From a virus, in the UHGV virus genome UHGV-1315295: a DNA stretch of 37,798 nt. One strand, 5' to 3'. Position numbers and translations under genes: made by a program. The notes beneath the pieces were generated by a model. It searched no databases, had not been told where the DNA came from, and was given only the letters and a program-made list of their open reading frames with translations. Shown here piece by piece: positions 1,363 through 37,798 of the stretch. Each line of letters opens with the position of its first letter. Positions within the stretch are counted from its first letter, which is position 1.

Positions 1363-4300
1363 ATGGTCAGTCAAACCAATGAACAAGCATTAGAGTCGGC
1401 CATTGAGAAATGTCTGGCTGGGATCAGTACTGAAGAGCTCAAAGAGGGGCTGAGTCAGCAGTCACTGGGTGCTGGATACTTCATTGGTGCTGCTAGTGAC
1501 TTTAATATGCAATATGCCATTGATGAACGTTTTTTCTGGCAATTTCTGCAAAAGACACAAGAAGTAGAGTTGGCCAAACTGCAAAAGAACAACCCCTCAG
1601 ATTGGCAACGTAAGTTACTCGAACGATTTGACCGACTGATTAAGAAGCATGGCATTCTTCATTTACTTAAGAAAGGGCTAAGCGTAGACGATGCTCATTT
1701 CAATTTGCTCTATCCAGCCCCTTTGGCAAGTAGTAGTGAGAAGGTAAAGCAAAACTTTGCAGATAACGTGTTTAGTTGTACTCGCCAAGTGCGCTATTCC
1801 ATGGTAAATCCCCTACAAGAAATCGACATGGTATTGTTTATCAACGGAATACCCTTGATAACGCTGGAGTTGAAGAACGCATGGACCGGGCAAACAGCAC
1901 GTTATCACGGCCAAAAGCAGTATCGAGATGATCGGGATGCAACTCAGCCATTGCTGACCTTTGGCCGCTGCCTAGTGCATATGGCGGTCGATACCGACGA
2001 AGTGTATATGACCACCAAGTTATCAGGTAGCAGTACATTCTTCTTGCCGTTCAATAAAGGTCACAATCTTGGACAAGGCAACCCGCCGAATCCATCTGGC
2101 CATAAAACGGCATACCTATGGCAAGAAGTATTCACTAAAGACAGCTTGGCGAATATTATTCAGCATTTTGTGCGTCTGGATGGGTCAAGCAAAGATCCAT
2201 TACCCAAGCGAACCCTGTTCTTTCCTCGATACCATCAATTGGATGTGGTGAGAAAATTAGTAGACCATGCCGCCCAGCACGGTGTCGGTCAGACTTACTT
2301 AATTCAACACTCAGCCGGTTCAGGTAAGTCTAACTCGATTACCTGGGCAGCTTATCAGCTAATTGAAACCTATCCTGCTTCGTCTGATGTGGCAGGCGGA
2401 AAAAGCTTGGAGCAGCCGTTGTTTGACTCTGTGATTGTGGTCACCGATAGACGCCTATTGGACAAGCAGCTGCGGGATAACATTAAAGAGTTTTCTGAAG
2501 TAAAGAACATTATTGCCCCAGCGAATAAGTCTTCTGAGCTTAAGCAGGCGCTGGAGAATGGCAAAAAGATTATTATAACGACGATTCAGAAATTCCCGTT
2601 CATTATTGATGGTATCGCCGATCTTAGTGACAAGCGCTTTGCAGTGATCATCGATGAAGCACACAGCTCACAGTCTGGTTCGGCGCATGACAATATGAAC
2701 CGAGCGATGGGCAAGTCTGAAGTCGAAGAGGCAGAAGATGCTCAGGATAAAATCCTTCAGGCGATGAGATCGCGTAAGATGCGCGGGAATGCGTCGTACC
2801 TGGCATTTACAGCGACACCAAAAAACAGCACTTTGGAGAAATTTGGTCAACGCCAAGAAGATGGCTCTTACAAGCCGTTTCACTTGTATTCGATGAAACA
2901 AGCCATTGAAGAAGGCTTCATCTTGGATGTGCTGGCAAATTATACGACGTACAAAAGTTATTATGAGATTGAGAAATCAATTGCTGATAACCCTGAGTTT
3001 GATACCAAAAAGGCGCAGAAAAAACTCAGAGCTTATGTAGAACGAAGCCAGCAAACAATTGATATCAAGGCAGAGATTATGCTGGAGCATTTTGTTCCGC
3101 ATGTCGTGAATACGAAAAAGCTCAAAGGTAAAGGTAAAGGAATGGTGGTCACTCAAAATATTGAGGCGGCCATTCGATACTACAAAGCGATAAGGCGAAT
3201 ACTTGAGGAGCAAGGAAACCCGTTTAAAGTTGCCATTGCTTTCTCAGGAACCAAAGAAGTTGATGGTATTGAATATACCGAAGCAGATATTAATGGTTTT
3301 GCCGAGTCAGATACCAAAGATATGTTTGATACCGATGAGTATCGACTTTTAGTGGTTGCTAACAAGTATCTGACTGGGTTTGACCAGCCTAAGCTTTGCG
3401 CCATGTATGTAGATAAGAAGCTCGCCAGTGTCTTGTGTGTTCAGGCGCTATCTAGGCTCAATCGCAGTGCACCTAAGCTAGGGAAGAAAACAGAAGACTT
3501 GTTTATCCTGGATTTTTTCAACTCGGTTGAAGATATTCAATCAGCATTCGATCCTTTCTATACAGCAACGTCATTGTCCCAAGCTACAGATATAAACGTA
3601 CTGCACGAGTTGAAAGATGAAATGGACGATGTCGGTGTGTACGAGTGGTATGAAGTTGAAGACTTTGTGACGCGTTATTTCAAGAATGAAGACGCCCAAA
3701 CACTCAGTCCAATCATTGATATTGCCGCAGCGCGGTTTGACCATGAACTAGATCTTGAAGCTGAAGCTAAAGTGGACTTTAAGATTAAAGCCAAACAGTT
3801 CGTTAAAATCTATGGGCAGATGGCTTCTATCATGCCTTATGAAATGGTCAGCTGGGAAAAACTGTTTTGGTTCCTGAAGTTTTTAATACCGAAATTGAAA
3901 GTGGAAGATCCCGATGCTAATGCTATTGATGAGCTTCTCGATTCTGTCGATCTGAGTTCATACGGTTTGCAACGTGTGAAGCTTAACCACAGCATTAAAC
4001 TTAGTGACCAAGAAGCGGAGCTTGATCCTCAAAATCCGAACCCACGTGGGGTGCATGGCGGTGAAAAAGAAACTGACCCGCTGGATGAAATCATTCGCAC
4101 ATTTAATGAGCGATGGTTCCAGGGCTGGAGTGCCACACCTGAAGAGCAAAAGGTTAAGTTCGTGAACATCGCTGAAAGTATCCGCAATCACCCTGACTTC
4201 GAATCGAAATACAAAAACAACCCAGATCCCCATAATCGAAATTTGGCCTTCGAAAAAATGCTCAAGGAAATCATGCTGCAACGCCGTAAAGATGAACTTG

Positions 4301-6949: not shown

Positions 6950-8005
6950 CTATTTGCGAGCCTTTGCCTTGCGCAGCTCTTCGAGAATCGCCAGTTCTTC
7001 CTTGCTCAACATGACCATTTCCCCGTCTTTTTCTTCAGGGGCAACATCGATAATGTCCTCCGGATCATCACCTGGCAAGATATCTTCTGGCTCTTCAGGC
7101 GTAGCCATAGATGGCGGCAGTGCCGAACGTAACTTCGGCCGTCTATAGTGGATGACGAAGTAGACCGAGCTGCCGCGTTTCACTTCAGTGTAATCGAGAT
7201 AGCCGATCTCTCGCAGCTGCTCCATCGCCTTCCTGACTGTCGCATTCTGGGTAATGGTGCGGCTGGTTAAGTTAAGTCTGGCGCGTAAGCGAGCCAATGA
7301 GATTGGCGCCGGGTCTGGTGGCAAACTTTCAATGAAGGTGTAGAGCGCCTGCGCGGATTCTTTTCTGGAGAGTTCGTTGATGGCCCGAAGTTGCAAAAGC
7401 ACCTTTTTGTCGAACTGGTAAAGTTCGAAAATCTTAGGATCGGCCTTCAGTTCGACCGTGTCATTCTTGGTACTGTACTTTGCCGTCTGCACAAGGTGCG
7501 TAACGTAATACTCTTCAGAGCCTTTGCTGCGGAATGAGATGGTGTTTGTGGCGATACGACTTAGAGAGCTGTCCAGGCGCTTACGTAACTTCGCGGACGA
7601 TCTGGCTGTTGGTATGCCACAAAGTCTGACGAACTCGACGAACGGCAACGTGACGGTGTCACCAACAACCTTGTGCTTGGCGAACGCGTGGATGATGCCC
7701 ACCCATGTTTTGAAATCGTTATCCATATCAAGACGAAGACCAGCAATCCTTATATCCTCGTACCCTTCGGCTTTGGCCAGAGACAGCTGTTTGAGTTCAG
7801 CGGAGGCGTCCATAGAGACCATTTGCCCCTTTCTACCCCTGGATGTCGATTTCAGCGTCGGAACGAAGAGACCAAGACGCATCAGAGCAACAGGTTGAAC
7901 TGTGTTGTTGGTGTTAGGAACTAACGTAACAACTTCGCCGGTCTTTTTGTCTGTTTCGGAAAATGCTTCGCTTATCGCAATGTTTTTATTGTCGTTTACG
8001 CTCAT
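6950..8005 (-). CDS. repA: Replication initiator RepA (P1/IncY-type iteron-binding initiator)
   Basis: 351 aa; blocks [64 protein letters not shown] match my recollection of P1 RepA; flanked on both sides by iterons. Confidence 0.8.
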
Positions 8006-31715: not shown

Positions 31716-32111
31716 CGGCTGCAACTCGTTGACATTGGCGGTCACAAATTGAGGATTTCTATAAGAGTCCGTTGATCGCCACTTCCCCCACCTCTCCAAC
31801 CTACCCCAGCCCAGGCGTGACAAGACATTTAAGCCAATTACAACCATAAGAAAACAAATAAATAACACGTCAACGAAAAGTCAACGCTTTCCCCTGATTT
31901 GGTCTAAAAAGTTGACGTTTTCGCAAGCCATCTCTTATACCCAAAATCCTGCGCACCAGAATCCATCTCCCTGCGACCAAAACGTCAAAAACGACTCGTG
32001 ATATCACTCAAAAACAGAAGCGCTCAGAAGCGCTCCCGTTGCGTTATATTGGGTATCTAAACAAGTTGTTTTCAGGCATAAGAAAACAAGTTAACCACCC
32101 CCACAGGAAAC

Positions 32112-32380
32112 CCAGAGACGCCATTACCCAATACACGGAGAAGAACAGCCAGAACGAAACCCCGGACAAACCCAGACAAGAACAGGAGCCGTCACAATCT
32201 CGTTTACCCACCATTACCCCGAAAGAGAGCGCAAATTCCTGAATAGCAGGGAACGCCATTACTTCATATGCGGAGAACAACTAAAGCGCCCTACTGCCAT
32301 TACCCACACTTTCATCATTTCACGTAAACGAAGAGAAAAGCGCACCTGCCATTACTCCATACACGGAGAAGAACAATCAC
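32112..32380. repeat. Four direct repeats of a ~25-bp unit GCCATTACyy.ATAyrCGGAGAAGAACA in a T-poor noncoding tract
   Basis: Copies start near 32112, 32253, 32290, 32344. Confidence 0.5.
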
Positions 32381-32670
32381 CAAAACGACGAGAACAACCC
32401 AGACGAAAACACAGAGAAGAACCACCTCAAGAAGAACGAAACCACATACGCCGGTAGAGAGTACAAACCACCCATTTCACCCACAGGAATAGTCGCCGTA
32501 TTGAGCGTTATCAGAGAGAAGGTTTATGCCCACATAAGAGAGAAAATTCGTGGGAGGTATAAGTGGGAAGGGAAGGAGGGGTATCGCTACTTTTTCCGCA
32601 TAAATTCAAGCCATAGTTTTCGTCCCCCGTAACGTCCCTTTCCACCCCTTCGGTCAGCCTTCGGGCCATC

Positions 32671-32850
32671 CAGGGAAAAGGCCATGTCCCTTTTCAGAAA
32701 CGGGAGCGTCGCCGCAGGGAAAAGGCTGGAGGTTTTCAGGGAAACGGTGGGAATCCCGCTATACGAACCGGGAAAAGGCTGGCTGCCGGTCGGGAAACGG
32801 GTACATCCCGGTACAGAGTGAGGGACGACTGCGAGAGCGGTGCGGGAAAT
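32671..32850. repeat. Six direct copies of C(A/C)GGGAAA(A/C)GG-type motif in GC-rich noncoding DNA
   Basis: Copies at 32671, 32715, 32737, 32768, 32791, 32843; related copies in other intergenic regions. Confidence 0.5.
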
Positions 32851-33185
32851 CTTCGGGAGTGCGCCTTGCTCTTCGCTCGCCTGAAAATCGCGAGGGAGTG
32901 TCGTTCCCTCTCGTGCAGCTGCTGAACTCCATTCTGCCAGACCATCCTCGGGTCTCAAGCGATTTCAGTAGGTTTTCGGGGAGAAGAAAATTCTGCCCAC
33001 CAGCCCTGCGGCGCGCGTAGAGCAGAATATCGTAAATACTGGTTCCCGTGTCGTTCCCGGATACTCACTACCCAGCCTGGCTTTCCCGACATAAAATCCT
33101 TTTTCGCCTTTGTCTTATTGCGATAATAACACCAACAAGTAAACAACATGTTTAGACGTTATATAAACGAAGTGAGGATGAAGAG

Positions 33186-35704: not shown

Positions 35705-36187
35705 ATGAATTTTATCGCTACTGTAAACGCACCCGCACATGGCAATATCGCTGTAACGTTCTCTGATATTGAAAAACGAGTACTTGGTGCATGGCGCGAC
35801 AATGAGACGGTAGAACTGTCAGCACAAGAAAAATGCATTATTGCACGCGACATCATTTGCAATCGTCGTTACTCACGGGTAATTGAGAAAGCGTATGTCG
35901 CAAATTCTGGCTTCGGAACATTTGTCTTCCCGGTACGCTCCGGGCGATTCTGCCAGTCCAAGCTGATTGAGTTCGCTACGCAGATTTCTGTCTGGATTAA
36001 AACTCAATCGTCGTTCAAATTTTCCGACGATGAAGCAGTATCGCAGGGGATGCGGATCGCCAACAATGCAATAAAATGCAAAAACATTACGTATGCCGCT
36101 GGCGTTGACACATGGAAACTGTTTTGCGCTAACTTTATGCTGAATGTATACGCAAGCAACCGCATCCACATCCTTGATGGCGTGTAA
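35705..36187 (+). CDS. Hypothetical protein (160 aa)
   Basis: ATG 35705 with AAGGA RBS. Confidence 0.5.
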   Translation: MNFIATVNAPAHGNIAVTFSDIEKRVLGAWRDNETVELSAQEKCIIARDIICNRRYSRVIEKAYVANSGFGTFVFPVRSGRFCQSKLIEFATQISVWIKTQSSFKFSDDEAVSQGMRIANNAIKCKNITYAAGVDTWKLFCANFMLNVYASNRIHILDGV

Positions 36188-36190
36188 CTG

Positions 36191-36219
36191 AGAAGAGGGC
36201 CAGAAACGGCCCTTTCTCT
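36191..36219 (+). terminator. Hairpin terminator
   Basis: GAGGGCC-agaaac-GGCCCT followed by TTCTCTA. Confidence 0.45.
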
Positions 36220-36783
36220 ATAGCCACCAGCTGCCGCAGGGAAATTTTCAGAAACGGCGAGGAACGCATTCATGAGCCGACGGGAAACGGCCAAGATTTT
36301 TTCGGGAAACGGCGGGGGTCGCCTTTATGTAGAAAACTGAGCGGGAGAAACCCGGAATCGCGCCAGAAATTGCGTAGCGGCGCTGGGGTAGCGCTGGTGG
36401 GGGTTTCAGCCCCTGGGCCATCCAGATAGCTTTCGCTATGTGATTATGTGAATCCGTGGGTAAATCACTGTAAGCGCGTACACGTTGCCCAACGTGGCAA
36501 TCATATGCGAGCGGATACAAAACAACACAAAGAGCCGATCCGCGCCGACAAATAAACGCGGATCACATAGCAAGACTAAAAGCCAATGATTAACCATACT
36601 CTATAGCGCAATATAACGCGTTTTAAGCGCGTTAATGTGTTAAGTAATGGGTATAGTACTAACAAGGATATAAAAGCGCGTCTATGGCGTTATTTTGGTG
36701 CTTATTTTTATGTTGTTGAAGCGAGTTAAAGACAATAAAAAACGCGCCAATGATGGCGCGTTATGGTGGGAGTATTGGAAACG

Positions 36784-36818
36784 AAAAAAGCGCCCATAGT
36801 GGGCGCTCGATTTTATTT
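36784..36818. terminator. Bidirectional hairpin terminator
   Basis: AAAAA-AGCGCCCA-tag-TGGGCGCT-CGATTTTATTT: A-run and T-run on opposite sides; ends the minus-strand gene 36813-37043. Confidence 0.5.
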
Positions 36819-37043
36819 GTGTAAACTAATTTTGAATCCCATTTCTACAAACGCTTTTAACATTAAAAATATATCAGCGTCATTCACGTCTGCTTTTTTT
36901 CGCTCCTGGTCGTTCAATAAGTCAATTTTGCGCGTTGTTTCATTTATAAACTCGACTGCGCGCCCAGCGTACCCCGCGATCCCAGCGATGCGATTAACAA
37001 AATAATCATTGCGCACGTTAACGCCAGCAATAAGAACAAACAT
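36813..37043 (-). CDS. Hypothetical small protein (76 aa)
   Basis: Minus-strand ATG with AAGGAG RBS; flanked by hairpins at 36789-36807 and 37064-37080. Confidence 0.45.
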   Translation of the reverse strand: MFVLIAGVNVRNDYFVNRIAGIAGYAGRAVEFINETTRKIDLLNDQERKKADVNDADIFLMLKAFVEMGFKISLHK

Positions 37044-37093
37044 GATTAAGCTCCTTAAAACTAGCGCCCACTATGGGCGCTATATCCATCTAA

Positions 37094-37744
37094 TTACGCT
37101 TTGAAAGCATCAGCAAGATAGTTATAAAAATCATTTTTAACGAAGCGATATTGCTGTGATCCGTTTTTCGCTGCACCCATTCCTTTGATTTTTTCGACCA
37201 GTCCCAGACGTTCGCAAAGATTGATAAGCTGGTTGGCTTGAGTGTATCCAGCGTCTAATTTTATTTCGTTGGCTTTTTTCGCTTCATTCATTAAATCGAA
37301 AACAGCGCCATTAGTGAACGTGTCGATCTCGTCGTTAATCATATCGATTAACGCGAATACACGAGATCCGGACATATCAGCGACGGAATAAACGCATTTG
37401 CCAGATTTAATTGATTTAACCAGATAAACCAATTTTTCGAGTGAATAGCTATTTGTCATAGCTTCGCGGAAAAACACTTCTGGCGCTTGTTTGCTTGCTT
37501 TAATCGCGTAGTAAAAGACACCAGCTAATTTCTCATCATTAACAGCGTTTAAAACGTTGTTGGTGAAGTATGCTAGTTTGGTAGACGCTGCAAGCATGTT
37601 GGCTTTATCCGCTTTTGTGTGTGTACCATTCTGATAATGATTGTTATAAGTCTGAGTAGCGTTGTTGGCTGCAACTTGCAATTCATTAGCGATAACTACA
37701 GCAGCGTCGATGATGGATTTTTTAGAAATGGTAACGTTAGACAT
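37094..37744 (-). CDS. Hypothetical protein (216 aa), AT-rich codon usage
   Basis: Minus-strand ATG with AAGGATT RBS; composition differs from the + strand genes. Confidence 0.55.
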   Translation of the reverse strand: MSNVTISKKSIIDAAVVIANELQVAANNATQTYNNHYQNGTHTKADKANMLAASTKLAYFTNNVLNAVNDEKLAGVFYYAIKASKQAPEVFFREAMTNSYSLEKLVYLVKSIKSGKCVYSVADMSGSRVFALIDMINDEIDTFTNGAVFDLMNEAKKANEIKLDAGYTQANQLINLCERLGLVEKIKGMGAAKNGSQQYRFVKNDFYNYLADAFKA

Positions 37745-37798
37745 GATGTTAATCCTTATGTAATATTGATAACTTAATTTTTTATTTATTTATCGTTA

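Follow-up and report, generated by a model that had tools for sequence, protein, structure and literature searches.

The last 1.6 kb of the 37,798-nt viral DNA analysed here (UHGV-1315295, referred to below as the window) differs from the rest in strand and base composition and carries similar hairpins on both sides of a small gene. This raises two questions: whether the block was acquired separately from the remainder of the element, as the initial annotation suggested, and what the hairpins are. The window is identifiable by sequence as a fragment of an SSU5-like phage-plasmid, and the interval is the zone in which two large transcription units of this phage-plasmid converge. The rightward unit, for replication and nucleotide metabolism, closes with a stem-loop located directly after the stop of a 160-aa gene at position 36187. 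The leftward unit begins outside the window; in annotated relatives its order is UvsW-like helicase, small genes, transcriptional regulator and 216-aa gene, and its last parts are the 216-aa gene, a small orphan gene, and then the hairpins H2 and T2. The features of the region are listed below.

36190-36218, plus strand: stem-loop at the end of the rightward unit, with a GGGCC/GGCCC core followed by TTTCTCTAT, just 3' of the 160-aa gene
36249-36313, plus strand: three direct repeats (C/G)(A/G)GAAACGGC at 36249, 36282 and 36304 (spacing 33 and 22 bp)
36581-36740, no strand: AT-rich non-coding spacer, ~40% G+C, moderately conserved, downstream of the minus-strand terminators
36741-36762, minus strand: T2, predicted back-up intrinsic terminator of the leftward unit, AACGCGCCA-TCAT-TGGCGCGTT followed by TTTTTATTGTC
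36788-36808 (core 36790-36806), minus strand: H2, the downstream repeat copy (gene-strand loop CTA), with TTTTTTCGTTTC after the hairpin
36813-37043, minus strand: 76-aa orphan gene F2 (phrog_1585), the cassette in the variable slot, with Shine-Dalgarno sequence AAGGAG at 37051-37056
37062-37082 (core 37064-37080), minus strand: H1, the upstream repeat copy, whose gene-strand loop, TAG, is the less common, flipped state
37094-37744, minus strand: 216-aa conserved backbone gene (phrog_1513), encoding a helical N-terminal part and a C-terminal winged-helix domain
37745-37798, minus strand: 5' leader of the 216-aa gene, with Shine-Dalgarno sequence AAGGA at 37753-37757

Origin of the AT-rich block

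Re-examination recovered the small gene, the 216-aa gene, the hairpins and the low G+C content reported initially, and confirmed both minus-strand ORFs (37744-37094, 216 aa; 37043-36813, 76 aa). The description of the last 1.6 kb as AT-rich and minus-strand was accurate for 36581-37798, where the G+C content was 38.7% compared with 48.2% for the window, the minimum of 732 sliding windows (z = -3.3). It did not apply to the first 360 bases of the interval (36220-36580), which had 53.7% G+C and no minus-strand coding; these form a conserved non-coding stretch adjoining the terminator of the rightward unit.

The view that the complete block (216-aa gene, small gene and hairpins) is a horizontally acquired foreign cassette draws on this lowest sliding window, on the GC3 of the 216-aa gene (39.6%, the lowest among 31 genes) and on a coding strand opposite to that of the preceding 28 kb. 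We nevertheless regard it as very unlikely. The 216-aa gene was syntenic in all relatives examined, including Yersinia pestis pMT1 and elements from Klebsiella, Enterobacter and Salmonella; a set of 1.8 billion proteins contained just 26 representatives of its family at 50% identity, each from an element of this kind; and both the minus-strand unit and the AT-rich zone extend ~4-5 kb past the window. Any acquisition would be older than the family. In Cyrano, the AT-rich zone covers ~4 kb, from CYRAN_112 to CYRAN_117, and the low-G+C zone is a family trait. With the small gene, the 216-aa gene forms the tail of a conserved leftward operon whose upstream part lies beyond the end of the window. 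Conservation in relatives together with a composition matching the rest had been named at the outset as the observation that would speak against acquisition; only half of this was found, because the low G+C content is genuine: the block is conserved, but its composition differs. The cassette idea was not supported for the block as a whole, in which the 216-aa gene is a conserved and syntenic backbone gene, but it was supported for the 76-aa gene, which lies in a variable slot bounded by the hairpins.

Conserved and orphan genes of the leftward unit

At 84-99% DNA identity, the 216-aa gene was present in 730 PLSDB plasmids as well as in SSU5, Cyrano, PhiR41_1 and Y. pestis pMT1. Its carriers are hundreds of plasmids and phages of ~105-115 kb (11 phage records matched), and its homologues were found essentially only on contigs of the SSU5-like element family. 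The gene's neighbours were unchanged in all six annotated relatives inspected and in the loci oriented on the 216-aa gene. Its promoter lies outside the window; in pLAO4, a sigma-70-like site (TTGATT-16-GATAAT) is located ~80 nt upstream of the ATG.

Searches of the 216-, 76-, 67- and 160-aa proteins against Pfam, NCBIfam, PADLOC and PDB sequences returned nothing meaningful, the 76-aa protein being unmatched in all four. PHROGs assigned these proteins to families of 'unknown function' only, besides a 'MIT/CorA transporter' label on the 67-aa protein, which is apparently wrong. The AlphaFold model of the 76-aa protein was unusable (pLDDT 46), and Foldseek comparison of the good model of the 216-aa protein with PDB and BFVD gave generic winged-helix matches only (E values of at least 0.02). 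The 216-, 76- and 67-aa proteins appear to be orphans confined to the SSU5-like family. In an LF82 lysogen of Cyrano grown in LB, the homologues of the 216-aa gene and the small gene were both at the detection floor; the value for the small gene was slightly below that for the 216-aa gene in macrophages at 6 h (PMC9928086 S1 Table). The 216-aa protein is probably a DNA-binding protein that, because of these expression values, we consider silent in the lysogen. Binding of this protein to GGGAAACGGC repeats was considered and rejected: it had no covariation support, and the recognition helix was invariant even in locus L028, where both repeats are GGGGAAAGGC.

Intergenic stretch and AT-rich spacer

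The stem-loop at 36190-36218 (fold -17.7 kcal/mol, z = -3.8) is kept in relatives; in the SSU5 type its T-run is better (TTTCTTTTTCG). Within the intergenic stretch, conservation is highest in the repeat array at 36249-36313. A homologous repeat array was found at 32673-32801, the motif occurring nowhere else in the 108-kb Cyrano genome; the three-repeat array is possibly a protein-binding array.

Several other candidate elements were discarded. RepA iteron-like cores, TCTCTATAG, occur at 36215 and 36598 and are enriched window-wide; these two copies are probable chance occurrences because they are not conserved in relatives. A minus-strand stem-loop at 36536-36565 was rejected as a conserved small-RNA terminator, its stem being absent in SSU5. 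The palindrome AACGCGTT was present in the AT-rich stretch as initially annotated (36615-36622), and the spacer also holds loose AAGCGCGT repeats; these motifs were rejected as decayed terminator hairpins, their alignment scores lying inside the shuffle range. An Rfam search of the entire window gave no match at the gathering threshold and only sub-threshold hairpin look-alikes at 36733-36811.

Paired hairpins around the small gene

The H1 core, GCGCCCACTATGGGCGC, was mapped to 37064-37080, exactly as first reported, and the second minus-direction hairpin, T2, was likewise present at 36741-36762; the H2 core, GCGCCCATAGTGGGCGC, lies at 36790-36806, one base lower than first reported. The pattern GCGCCCA-NNN-TGGGCGC, with up to two mismatches, occurred at just these two sites, H1 and H2, in the 37.8-kb window, against a chance expectation of 0.12, and none of 100 shuffles contained two matches. 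The predicted fold energies were -18.1 kcal/mol for H1 (z = -3.3), -15.6 for H2 and -15.7 for T2 (z = -5.2), with z values from -3.3 to -5.2 relative to shuffles. In the complete 108-kb Cyrano genome, the H hairpin was found at the slot only, and the other terminator-like hairpins were each unique. A pattern scan of IMG/VR was uninformative, with single copies in many unrelated contigs and paired copies in the SSU5-like family only. The number of single matches in unrelated viral contigs is about that given by chance for a pattern with 14 specified bases, by an estimate rather than a computation.

The GC-rich stems and T-runs stand directly after stop codons. H2 (TTTTTTCGTTTC) and T2 (TTTTTTATTGTC) carry the U-run of an intrinsic terminator, whereas H1 (GTTTTAAGG) does so weakly: on the gene strand it is followed only by GTTTTAAGGAG, with four U, and then by the ribosome-binding site of the small gene. 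On the plus strand, H2 is preceded by an A-run and followed by CGATTTTATTTG. The TTTTTTCGTTTC T-run followed the last hairpin in all 18 junctions listed, whereas the first hairpin had TAGTTTTAAGGAG-type tails only. Our promoter scan found no promoter-like site at or near H1 or H2, and the distance from hairpin to Shine-Dalgarno sequence was 10-15 nt. H2 is thus predicted to end the leftward unit as a strong intrinsic terminator, and may act on plus-strand transcripts as well; H1 would act as a leaky terminator or attenuator, or as a 3'-end stabiliser for the mRNA of the 216-aa gene.

Across 87 related loci, the H stems were nearly invariant, with one compensatory A-T to G-C change in the outer pair of two loci (L056 and L059). 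Because the stems vary so little, there is little covariation to tell an RNA hairpin from a protein-bound DNA palindrome, and this compensatory change is compatible with both.

A variable slot bounded by the hairpins

The hairpins are the exact boundaries of a variable slot. Among the 87 loci, the slot contained the 67-aa gene (F1) in 30, the unrelated 76-aa gene (F2) in 26, F1-F2 in 20 and F2-F2 in two, and it was empty in nine; the empty loci consist exactly of the left flank, a single hairpin and the right flank. Similarity breaks at the hairpins, and megablast alignments with many Klebsiella plasmids start at 37052, at H1. F1 and F2 were essentially restricted to this family and, in the loci examined, to this slot. 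A chromosomal homologue of the 76-aa gene in Escherichia coli (CP125919.1) was rejected as a second context; it belongs to a degraded integrated copy of the same element.

On a neighbour-joining tree built from the adjacent gene, slot architecture changed at least 11 times. The cassette content never differed between loci with at least 98.5% identity in that gene; therefore, cassette turnover is not fast, and some of the 11 changes could represent recombination between lineages. The two genes of the F1-F2 tandems have no hairpin separating them, so recombination between hairpins cannot account for every state.

Recurrent inversion of the hairpin loops

The two hairpins had been described as reverse complements of each other. 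This is exactly so, but because the stems are self-complementary the relation is informative for the 3-nt loop only (CTA versus TAG), and in the window it amounts to a loop flip of H1. In pLAO4, which is 98.6% identical to the region, the H1 loop is unflipped, and most hairpin pairs in relatives are direct repeats (CTA/CTA in 48 of 78). We counted at least six flips at H1 and at least five at the last hairpin. The T2 loops of relatives also occur as reverse-complement pairs (ATGA in 16 and TCAT in 10; TTGT in 28 and ACAA in eight). The flips likely arise by intrastrand template switching or by recombination between the stem arms, and no functional consequence of the H1 flip is expected. Nothing essential distinguishes them from the hairpin-loop micro-inversions known as quasipalindrome correction and, in chloroplasts, 'minute inversions', in which the spacer recurs in both orientations while the arms remain unchanged (PMC8604942, PMC5941160 and PMC8794818); the slot adds a dense, well-sampled case in phage-plasmid terminators.

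Interpretation of the hairpins

The explanation that we favour, and consider probable, is that the hairpins are duplicated intrinsic terminators at the convergence zone, leaky upstream and strong downstream with T2 as back-up, that they also provide short homologies for the gain and loss of cassettes, and that their loops flip by template switching. H1 would be a duplicate of H2 with most of its U-tract lost. H1 is inferred to let a fraction of the transcripts through, which would leave the small gene less strongly transcribed than the 216-aa gene. H1 and H2 could serve as short homologies because they are identical 17-21-bp sequences; unequal recombination or replication slippage between them would delete, duplicate or exchange a unit consisting of a short U-run, a ribosome-binding site, a small ORF and a hairpin. 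The outcome would be a miniature hyperplastic slot.

As perfect palindromes of 7-9 bp around a variable 3-bp centre, their arms nearly invariant across the 87 loci, the hairpins could also be duplex operators for a dimeric protein, such as the winged-helix protein encoded immediately upstream or the upstream regulator of Flag1_repress type, and would then control the small gene or block transcription rather than act as RNA terminators; H1 does lie 10-15 nt ahead of the ribosome-binding site of the small gene. Each last copy, however, has a conserved T6 run after it and an A-run before it, the signature of a bidirectional intrinsic terminator; the copies follow stop codons instead of accompanying promoters, none of which the scan detected beside them; and T2, a different hairpin of like layout, is only 46 bp away. 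An operator role is therefore unlikely. Far less probable still is an invertible switch formed by the 243-bp inter-hairpin segment. In the window, the small gene does lie inside a 25-nt, 92% inverted repeat made up of the hairpins (arms 36789-36813 and 37057-37081), but all 102 small-gene matches in the 87 loci (51 of F1 and 51 of F2) had the orientation of the 216-aa gene, the CTA/CTA pairs are direct repeats, and no invertase or other recombinase gene is annotated next to the slot; we rejected this candidate.

The hairpins might instead be sites of active cassette exchange, by recombination of the PeSL mini-circle or single-strand hairpin type, with the small gene being mobile. Slots holding no, one or two units, F2-H-F2 arrays in tandem and boundaries placed exactly at the hairpins are in keeping with this idea, as is the T4-like recombination gene set of the element (RecA/UvsX-like, UvsY, gp32-like SSB, UvsW, RuvC and SbcCD); in phages RB49 and phi1, encapsidated mini-circles arise when repeated promoter/stem-loop motifs recombine (PMC2839356). 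Against it, the hairpin is confined to this slot in a complete genome, F1 and F2 are essentially family-only genes at this one position in the loci examined, no recombinase is encoded next to the slot, cassettes turn over slowly compared with point divergence, and ordinary homologous or slipped recombination suffices, which makes active exchange improbable. A more specific version, which we consider doubtful, holds that the hairpin is the functional joint of a PeSL-like mini-cassette system: the element's own UvsX/UvsY/UvsW-like proteins would excise, amplify and exchange units of ribosome-binding site, orphan gene and hairpin between co-resident SSU5-like elements, shuffling F1 and F2 as lytic host-takeover or anti-defence genes, with the truncated U-run of the upstream copy setting the dose.

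Comparison with known systems

PeSL cassettes of T4-type phages resemble the slot in having repeated stem-loop terminators that end in a Shine-Dalgarno sequence around small orphan genes, in having the end points of insertions, deletions and replacements within these repeats, and in the presence of T4-like recombination machinery (Arbiol et al. 2010, PMC2839356; Comeau et al. 2014, PMC4122927). The slot differs in that its repeat contains no sigma-70 promoter and in that two to three copies occur at one site, compared with ~50 dispersed through hyperplastic regions. Tandem intrinsic terminators at convergent gene ends share the GC-rich stem, the 3-4-nt loop, the U-run and an A-run/T-run symmetry that permits bidirectional action; in the slot, by contrast, one sequence is duplicated to bracket a gene and the upstream U-run is truncated.

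Phage morons, a term associated with Juhala et al. 2000 and Hendrix et al., are said to be small extra genes present in some relatives and followed by a terminator. The slot gene is alike in being an extra gene of variable presence with a terminator-like hairpin after it; however, no promoter of its own was found, its G+C content is like that of the neighbouring 216-aa gene (39.4% versus 39.3%), and the lysogen data show no expression of its Cyrano homologue (PMC9928086 S1 Table), so that neither prophage expression from its own promoter nor a differing composition was observed. Integron cassettes with attC sites likewise have small promoterless ORFs, a palindromic site after each and variable arrays. 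The H hairpin is instead a perfect 17-bp palindrome with a 7-9-bp stem, a 3-nt loop and 17-21 nt in total, far shorter than the 57-141-nt imperfect attC palindrome; it has no R/L boxes, no GTTRRRY core or edge sequence and no extrahelical bases, and no IntI gene is nearby. REP/BIME elements are dispersed, multi-copy extragenic palindromes, whereas two copies at one locus were found here, in the window as well as in the Cyrano genome.

Implications for SSU5-like phage-plasmids

These elements form a clinically widespread family of phage-plasmids (SSU5, pHCM2, pMT1 and Cyrano types), in whose annotation the AT-rich minus-strand block should be treated as phage-plasmid backbone and not as foreign DNA. 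The slot is one small site of orphan-gene gain and loss and a convenient neutral insertion point, and its five states, together with loop orientation, offer a typing marker. Two known processes, recombination at duplicated regulatory stem-loops and repeated micro-inversion of their loops, are illustrated here by a single compact natural locus. If the small genes are anti-defence or host-takeover factors, the slot shows how such genes may be swapped without disturbing the termination of the operon.

Source element and gene order

Phage sequences matching the region at 86-88% identity were Escherichia phage Cyrano, PhiR41_1, CMS-2020a, Klebsiella phage-plasmids and Salmonella phage SSU5, and the PLSDB matches comprised 730 plasmids of about 95-115 kb, mostly non-mobilizable, including E. 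coli pLAO4 (98.6%) and Yersinia pestis pMT1. Judging from these matches, the window is a piece of an SSU5-like phage-plasmid, and its layout was read by comparison with the annotated Cyrano genome. It encodes RepA, with 21-bp iterons, and a long rightward unit containing SbcCD, ribonucleotide reductase, ThyX, DHFR and many small genes. In annotated relatives, the leftward unit originates in a divergent promoter region adjoining ParB-like genes and runs from a UvsW-like helicase through small genes and a transcriptional regulator to the 216-aa gene and a small gene; the window contains only 54 nt before the start codon of the 216-aa gene. Since the 216-aa gene is distal in this unit in every annotated relative, the strand switch is the usual convergence point of the family.

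The plasmid replicon (6354-6450, 8093-8164 and 8472-8547) includes the repA gene (6950-8005, minus strand). Nine copies of the iteron (core TCTCTATAGTG) surround this gene, which is also flanked by a 41-bp tandem repeat. The iteron core also occurs with one mismatch at 36215 and 36598, in the intergenic region studied here; relatives keep neither.

Hairpins flanking the small gene

The two minus-strand genes of the initial annotation and its three hairpins were all found, with the downstream copy of the paired hairpin lying one base lower than reported.

Features around the convergence point
35705-36187, rightward: 160-aa gene, last gene of the long rightward unit
36741-36762, minus: third hairpin (T2), AACGCGCCA-NNNN-TGGCGCGTT
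36790-36806, minus: core of the downstream hairpin (H2), GCGCCCATAGTGGGCGC
37043-36813, minus: 76-aa ORF with a good ribosome-binding site
37064-37080, minus: core of the upstream hairpin (H1), GCGCCCACTATGGGCGC
37744-37094, minus: 216-aa ORF with a good ribosome-binding site

A scan of the 37.8-kb window allowing up to 2 mismatches retrieved H1 and H2 only, and the two-hit pattern was seen in 0 of 100 shuffles (chance expectation 0.12). RNA folding of the minus strand predicted that H1, H2 and T2 are stable (-15.6 to -18.1 kcal/mol, z = -3.3 to -5.2). In the complete Cyrano genome the GCGCCCA-N3-TGGGCGC hairpin is confined to the slot around the small gene, and other terminator-like hairpins each have their own sequence; the bracket is thus one terminator duplicated locally rather than a dispersed repeat family.

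A chromosomal copy of the end of the leftward unit was found in E. coli (CP125919.1, 388706-396936). It retains a Flag1_repress-type regulator, the 76-aa gene, H2 and T2; the 216-aa gene is broken between residues 115 and 119 and the first hairpin is replaced. It looks like an SSU5-like element that integrated and is decaying.

Slot content among relatives

For 87 related loci, the 216-aa gene served to set the orientation, and the sequence between it and the convergent 160-aa gene was compared. The hairpin lay directly 3' of the 216-aa stop codon in all 87 loci, and five slot states were distinguished.

States of the slot
Empty, one hairpin and then T2: 9 loci (e.g., L011)
F1 (67-aa gene) followed by a second hairpin: 30 loci (e.g., SSU5)
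F2 (76-aa gene) followed by a second hairpin: 26 loci (e.g., the window, Cyrano, pMT1)
F1 and F2 in tandem with no intervening hairpin: 20 loci (e.g., PhiR41_1)
F2-hairpin-F2-hairpin: 2 loci (L057, L065)

Slot boundaries are exact. In an empty locus the order is left flank, hairpin and TTTTTTCGTTTC; in an occupied one it is left flank, hairpin, T(A/T)(G/T)TTTTAAGGAG..ATG-ORF-stop, 6-8 nt, hairpin and TTTTTTCGTTTC. For many Klebsiella plasmids, Megablast similarity starts at 37052, at the upstream hairpin. A neighbour-joining tree of the adjacent gene required at least 11 changes of slot state, and no pair of loci at 98.5% identity or more differed in slot content; turnover of the slot is therefore apparently recurrent, yet not fast.

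A more distant relative (IMG/VR contig 3300030515_000002, 110.7 kb, region 3877-4187) shares this layout; its slot holds an F1-like gene of 67 aa that has diverged. A third GCGCCCA-N3-TGGGCGC copy replaces T2 there (loops CTA, TAG and CTT), which suggests that the paired hairpins and T2 are interchangeable paralogous terminators.

Loop inversion

H1 and H2 had been described as reverse complements, which is true; however, the stems are self-complementary, so the copies differ only in the 3-nt loop (CTA versus TAG). On the gene strand, the loop was CTA at both positions in 48 of 78 pairs, and the flipped TAG loop occurred in 9 first copies, including that of the window, and 8 last copies. The H1 loop of pLAO4, 98.6% identical over the region, is unflipped. 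Loci with a flipped loop have neighbours, 97.7-99.8% identical in the adjacent gene, in which it is unflipped; the tree of that gene requires a minimum of 6 flips at the first hairpin and 5 at the last. The T2 loops likewise occur in both orientations (ATGA 16/TCAT 10, TTGT 28/ACAA 8, TTGA 3/TCAA 1). These observations fit inversion of the spacer through template switching, or through recombination between the arms of short inverted repeats; inversion of this kind is known from other genomes (PMC8604942, PMC5941160, PMC8794818). We take the loop flip to be a functionless mutational by-product.

Composition

The interval 36220-37798 had been described as an AT-rich, perhaps separately acquired cassette. 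The AT-richness holds for 36581-37798 (38.7% G+C versus 48.2% for the whole window; the lowest of 732 sliding windows) and not for the first 360 bases, which are non-coding and contain 53.7% G+C. The GC3 of the 216-aa gene was the lowest among 31 genes, and Cyrano has an AT-rich zone of ~4 kb from CYRAN_112 to 117 (36-44% G+C). Acquisition of the 1.6-kb block as a unit is contradicted by the presence of the 216-aa gene in the same leftward unit of every annotated relative; in miniature, the idea holds for the small gene.

The encoded proteins

The 216-aa protein belongs to phrog_1513 (PHROG label 'unknown function') and had no sequence match in Pfam, NCBIfam, PADLOC or PDB. It has ~100 homologue clusters, mostly 56-99% identical, and where homologues were seen on long contigs, these mostly measured about 100-115 kb; only 26 matches came from a profile search against 1.8 billion representative proteins. 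In a confident AlphaFold model (pLDDT 86), long helices form the N-terminal part and a winged-helix domain the C-terminal part (residues about 127-213); with this model, Foldseek returned generic winged-helix matches only (RTP, ORC/Cdc6 winged helix, PadR and TubR; E of 0.02 or above).

The 76-aa (phrog_1585) and 67-aa (phrog_6145) proteins are almost confined to contigs of this element's size and are unrelated to each other (hhalign probability 0.6%); the model of the former was unusable (pLDDT 46). Codons 18-27 of the 76-aa gene (36960-36990) encode a short (I/Y)AG repeat, RIAGIAGYAG, with two to four units among homologues, suggesting slippage of a 9-bp repeat. In the SSU5 record (JQ965645), the gene for the coiled-coil-like 67-aa protein, SSU5_119, is labelled 'MIT family metal ion transporter CorA'. 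The label has no Pfam support, the 67 residues look soluble, and it is almost certainly a mis-annotation carried over into phrog_6145.

In LF82 lysogens grown in LB, the Cyrano homologues of the 216-aa gene and the small gene (CYRAN_113 and CYRAN_112) were at the detection floor, and in macrophages at 6 h they rose only modestly, the small gene remaining somewhat below the 216-aa gene (PMC9928086, S1 Table). From these levels we infer that both genes belong to the lytic programme and are off in lysogeny.

Repeats in non-coding stretches

Conservation of the non-coding stretch 36219-36740 is uneven. Its best-conserved part, 36222-36340, contains three direct GGGAAACGGC-type decamer repeats spaced 33 and 22 bp, and a homologous array lies elsewhere in the window.

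Arrays of GGGAAA(A/C)GG(C/T)
36249-36313: 3 copies (Cyrano 99035-99066)
32673-32801: 5 copies (Cyrano 95334-95440)

The arrays lie on the same strand about 3.5-3.6 kb apart, with spacing mostly of 22 or 33 bp and a run of small genes between them; the complete 108-kb Cyrano genome has the motif in the two equivalent clusters and at no other site. Our guess is a putative protein-binding array, iteron- or centromere-like in appearance. No covariation was found between the repeat variants and the recognition helix of the 216-aa winged-helix domain.

About 1.4 kb (31720-33150) lacks a convincing ORF and is strongly A/C-rich on the plus strand (GC skew -0.22, AT skew +0.31), with repeats GCCATTAC(C/T)C...ACGGAGAAGAACA at about 32118, 32255, 32296 and 32338. 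Positions 31722-32837 are 94.6% identical to SSU5 90403-91659, and no Rfam family matched 31720-33150. This stretch may encode a non-coding RNA or act in cis as a DNA site, perhaps as a lytic origin.

Relation to known systems and proposed mechanism

The closest described analogue of the slot is the PeSL cassette of T4-type phages, where orphan genes lie between repeated promoter/stem-loop motifs through which modules are shuffled (PMC2839356, PMC4122927). The hairpins described here also combine a stem-loop, a Shine-Dalgarno end and a link to orphan-gene indels; however, they have neither a promoter nor a dispersed multi-copy distribution and are thus not PeSLs in the strict sense. A classical moron was rejected because the small gene lacks a promoter, shares its neighbour's composition and is silent in the lysogen. 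The hairpins were also rejected as attC sites and as REP elements, and no small gene was inverted in any locus compared, which excluded an invertible switch. The feature combines tandem terminators, stem-loop-mediated shuffling of orphan genes and micro-inversion of hairpin loops, each of a kind already known.

H2 and T2 would act as tandem intrinsic terminators ending the leftward unit. On the plus strand, H2 is preceded by an A-run and followed by CGATTTTATTTG, and rightward transcripts reading through the stem-loop at 36190-36218 may also be halted by it. In H1 the stem is intact but only four U follow, and next comes the small gene's ribosome-binding site. H1 probably ends a fraction of the transcripts or makes the 216-aa mRNA more stable at its 3' end, and with partial termination the small gene would be expressed at a lower level by read-through. 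With 17-21 bp of shared sequence, the identical hairpins would allow slippage or unequal recombination, which would explain the empty, single and duplicated slots, and short TTTAAGGAGCTT repeats around F1 may account for conversion between F1-F2 and F2. The element encodes its own recombination proteins (RecA/UvsX-like, UvsY, gp32-like, UvsW, RuvC and SbcCD), which makes such events plausible.
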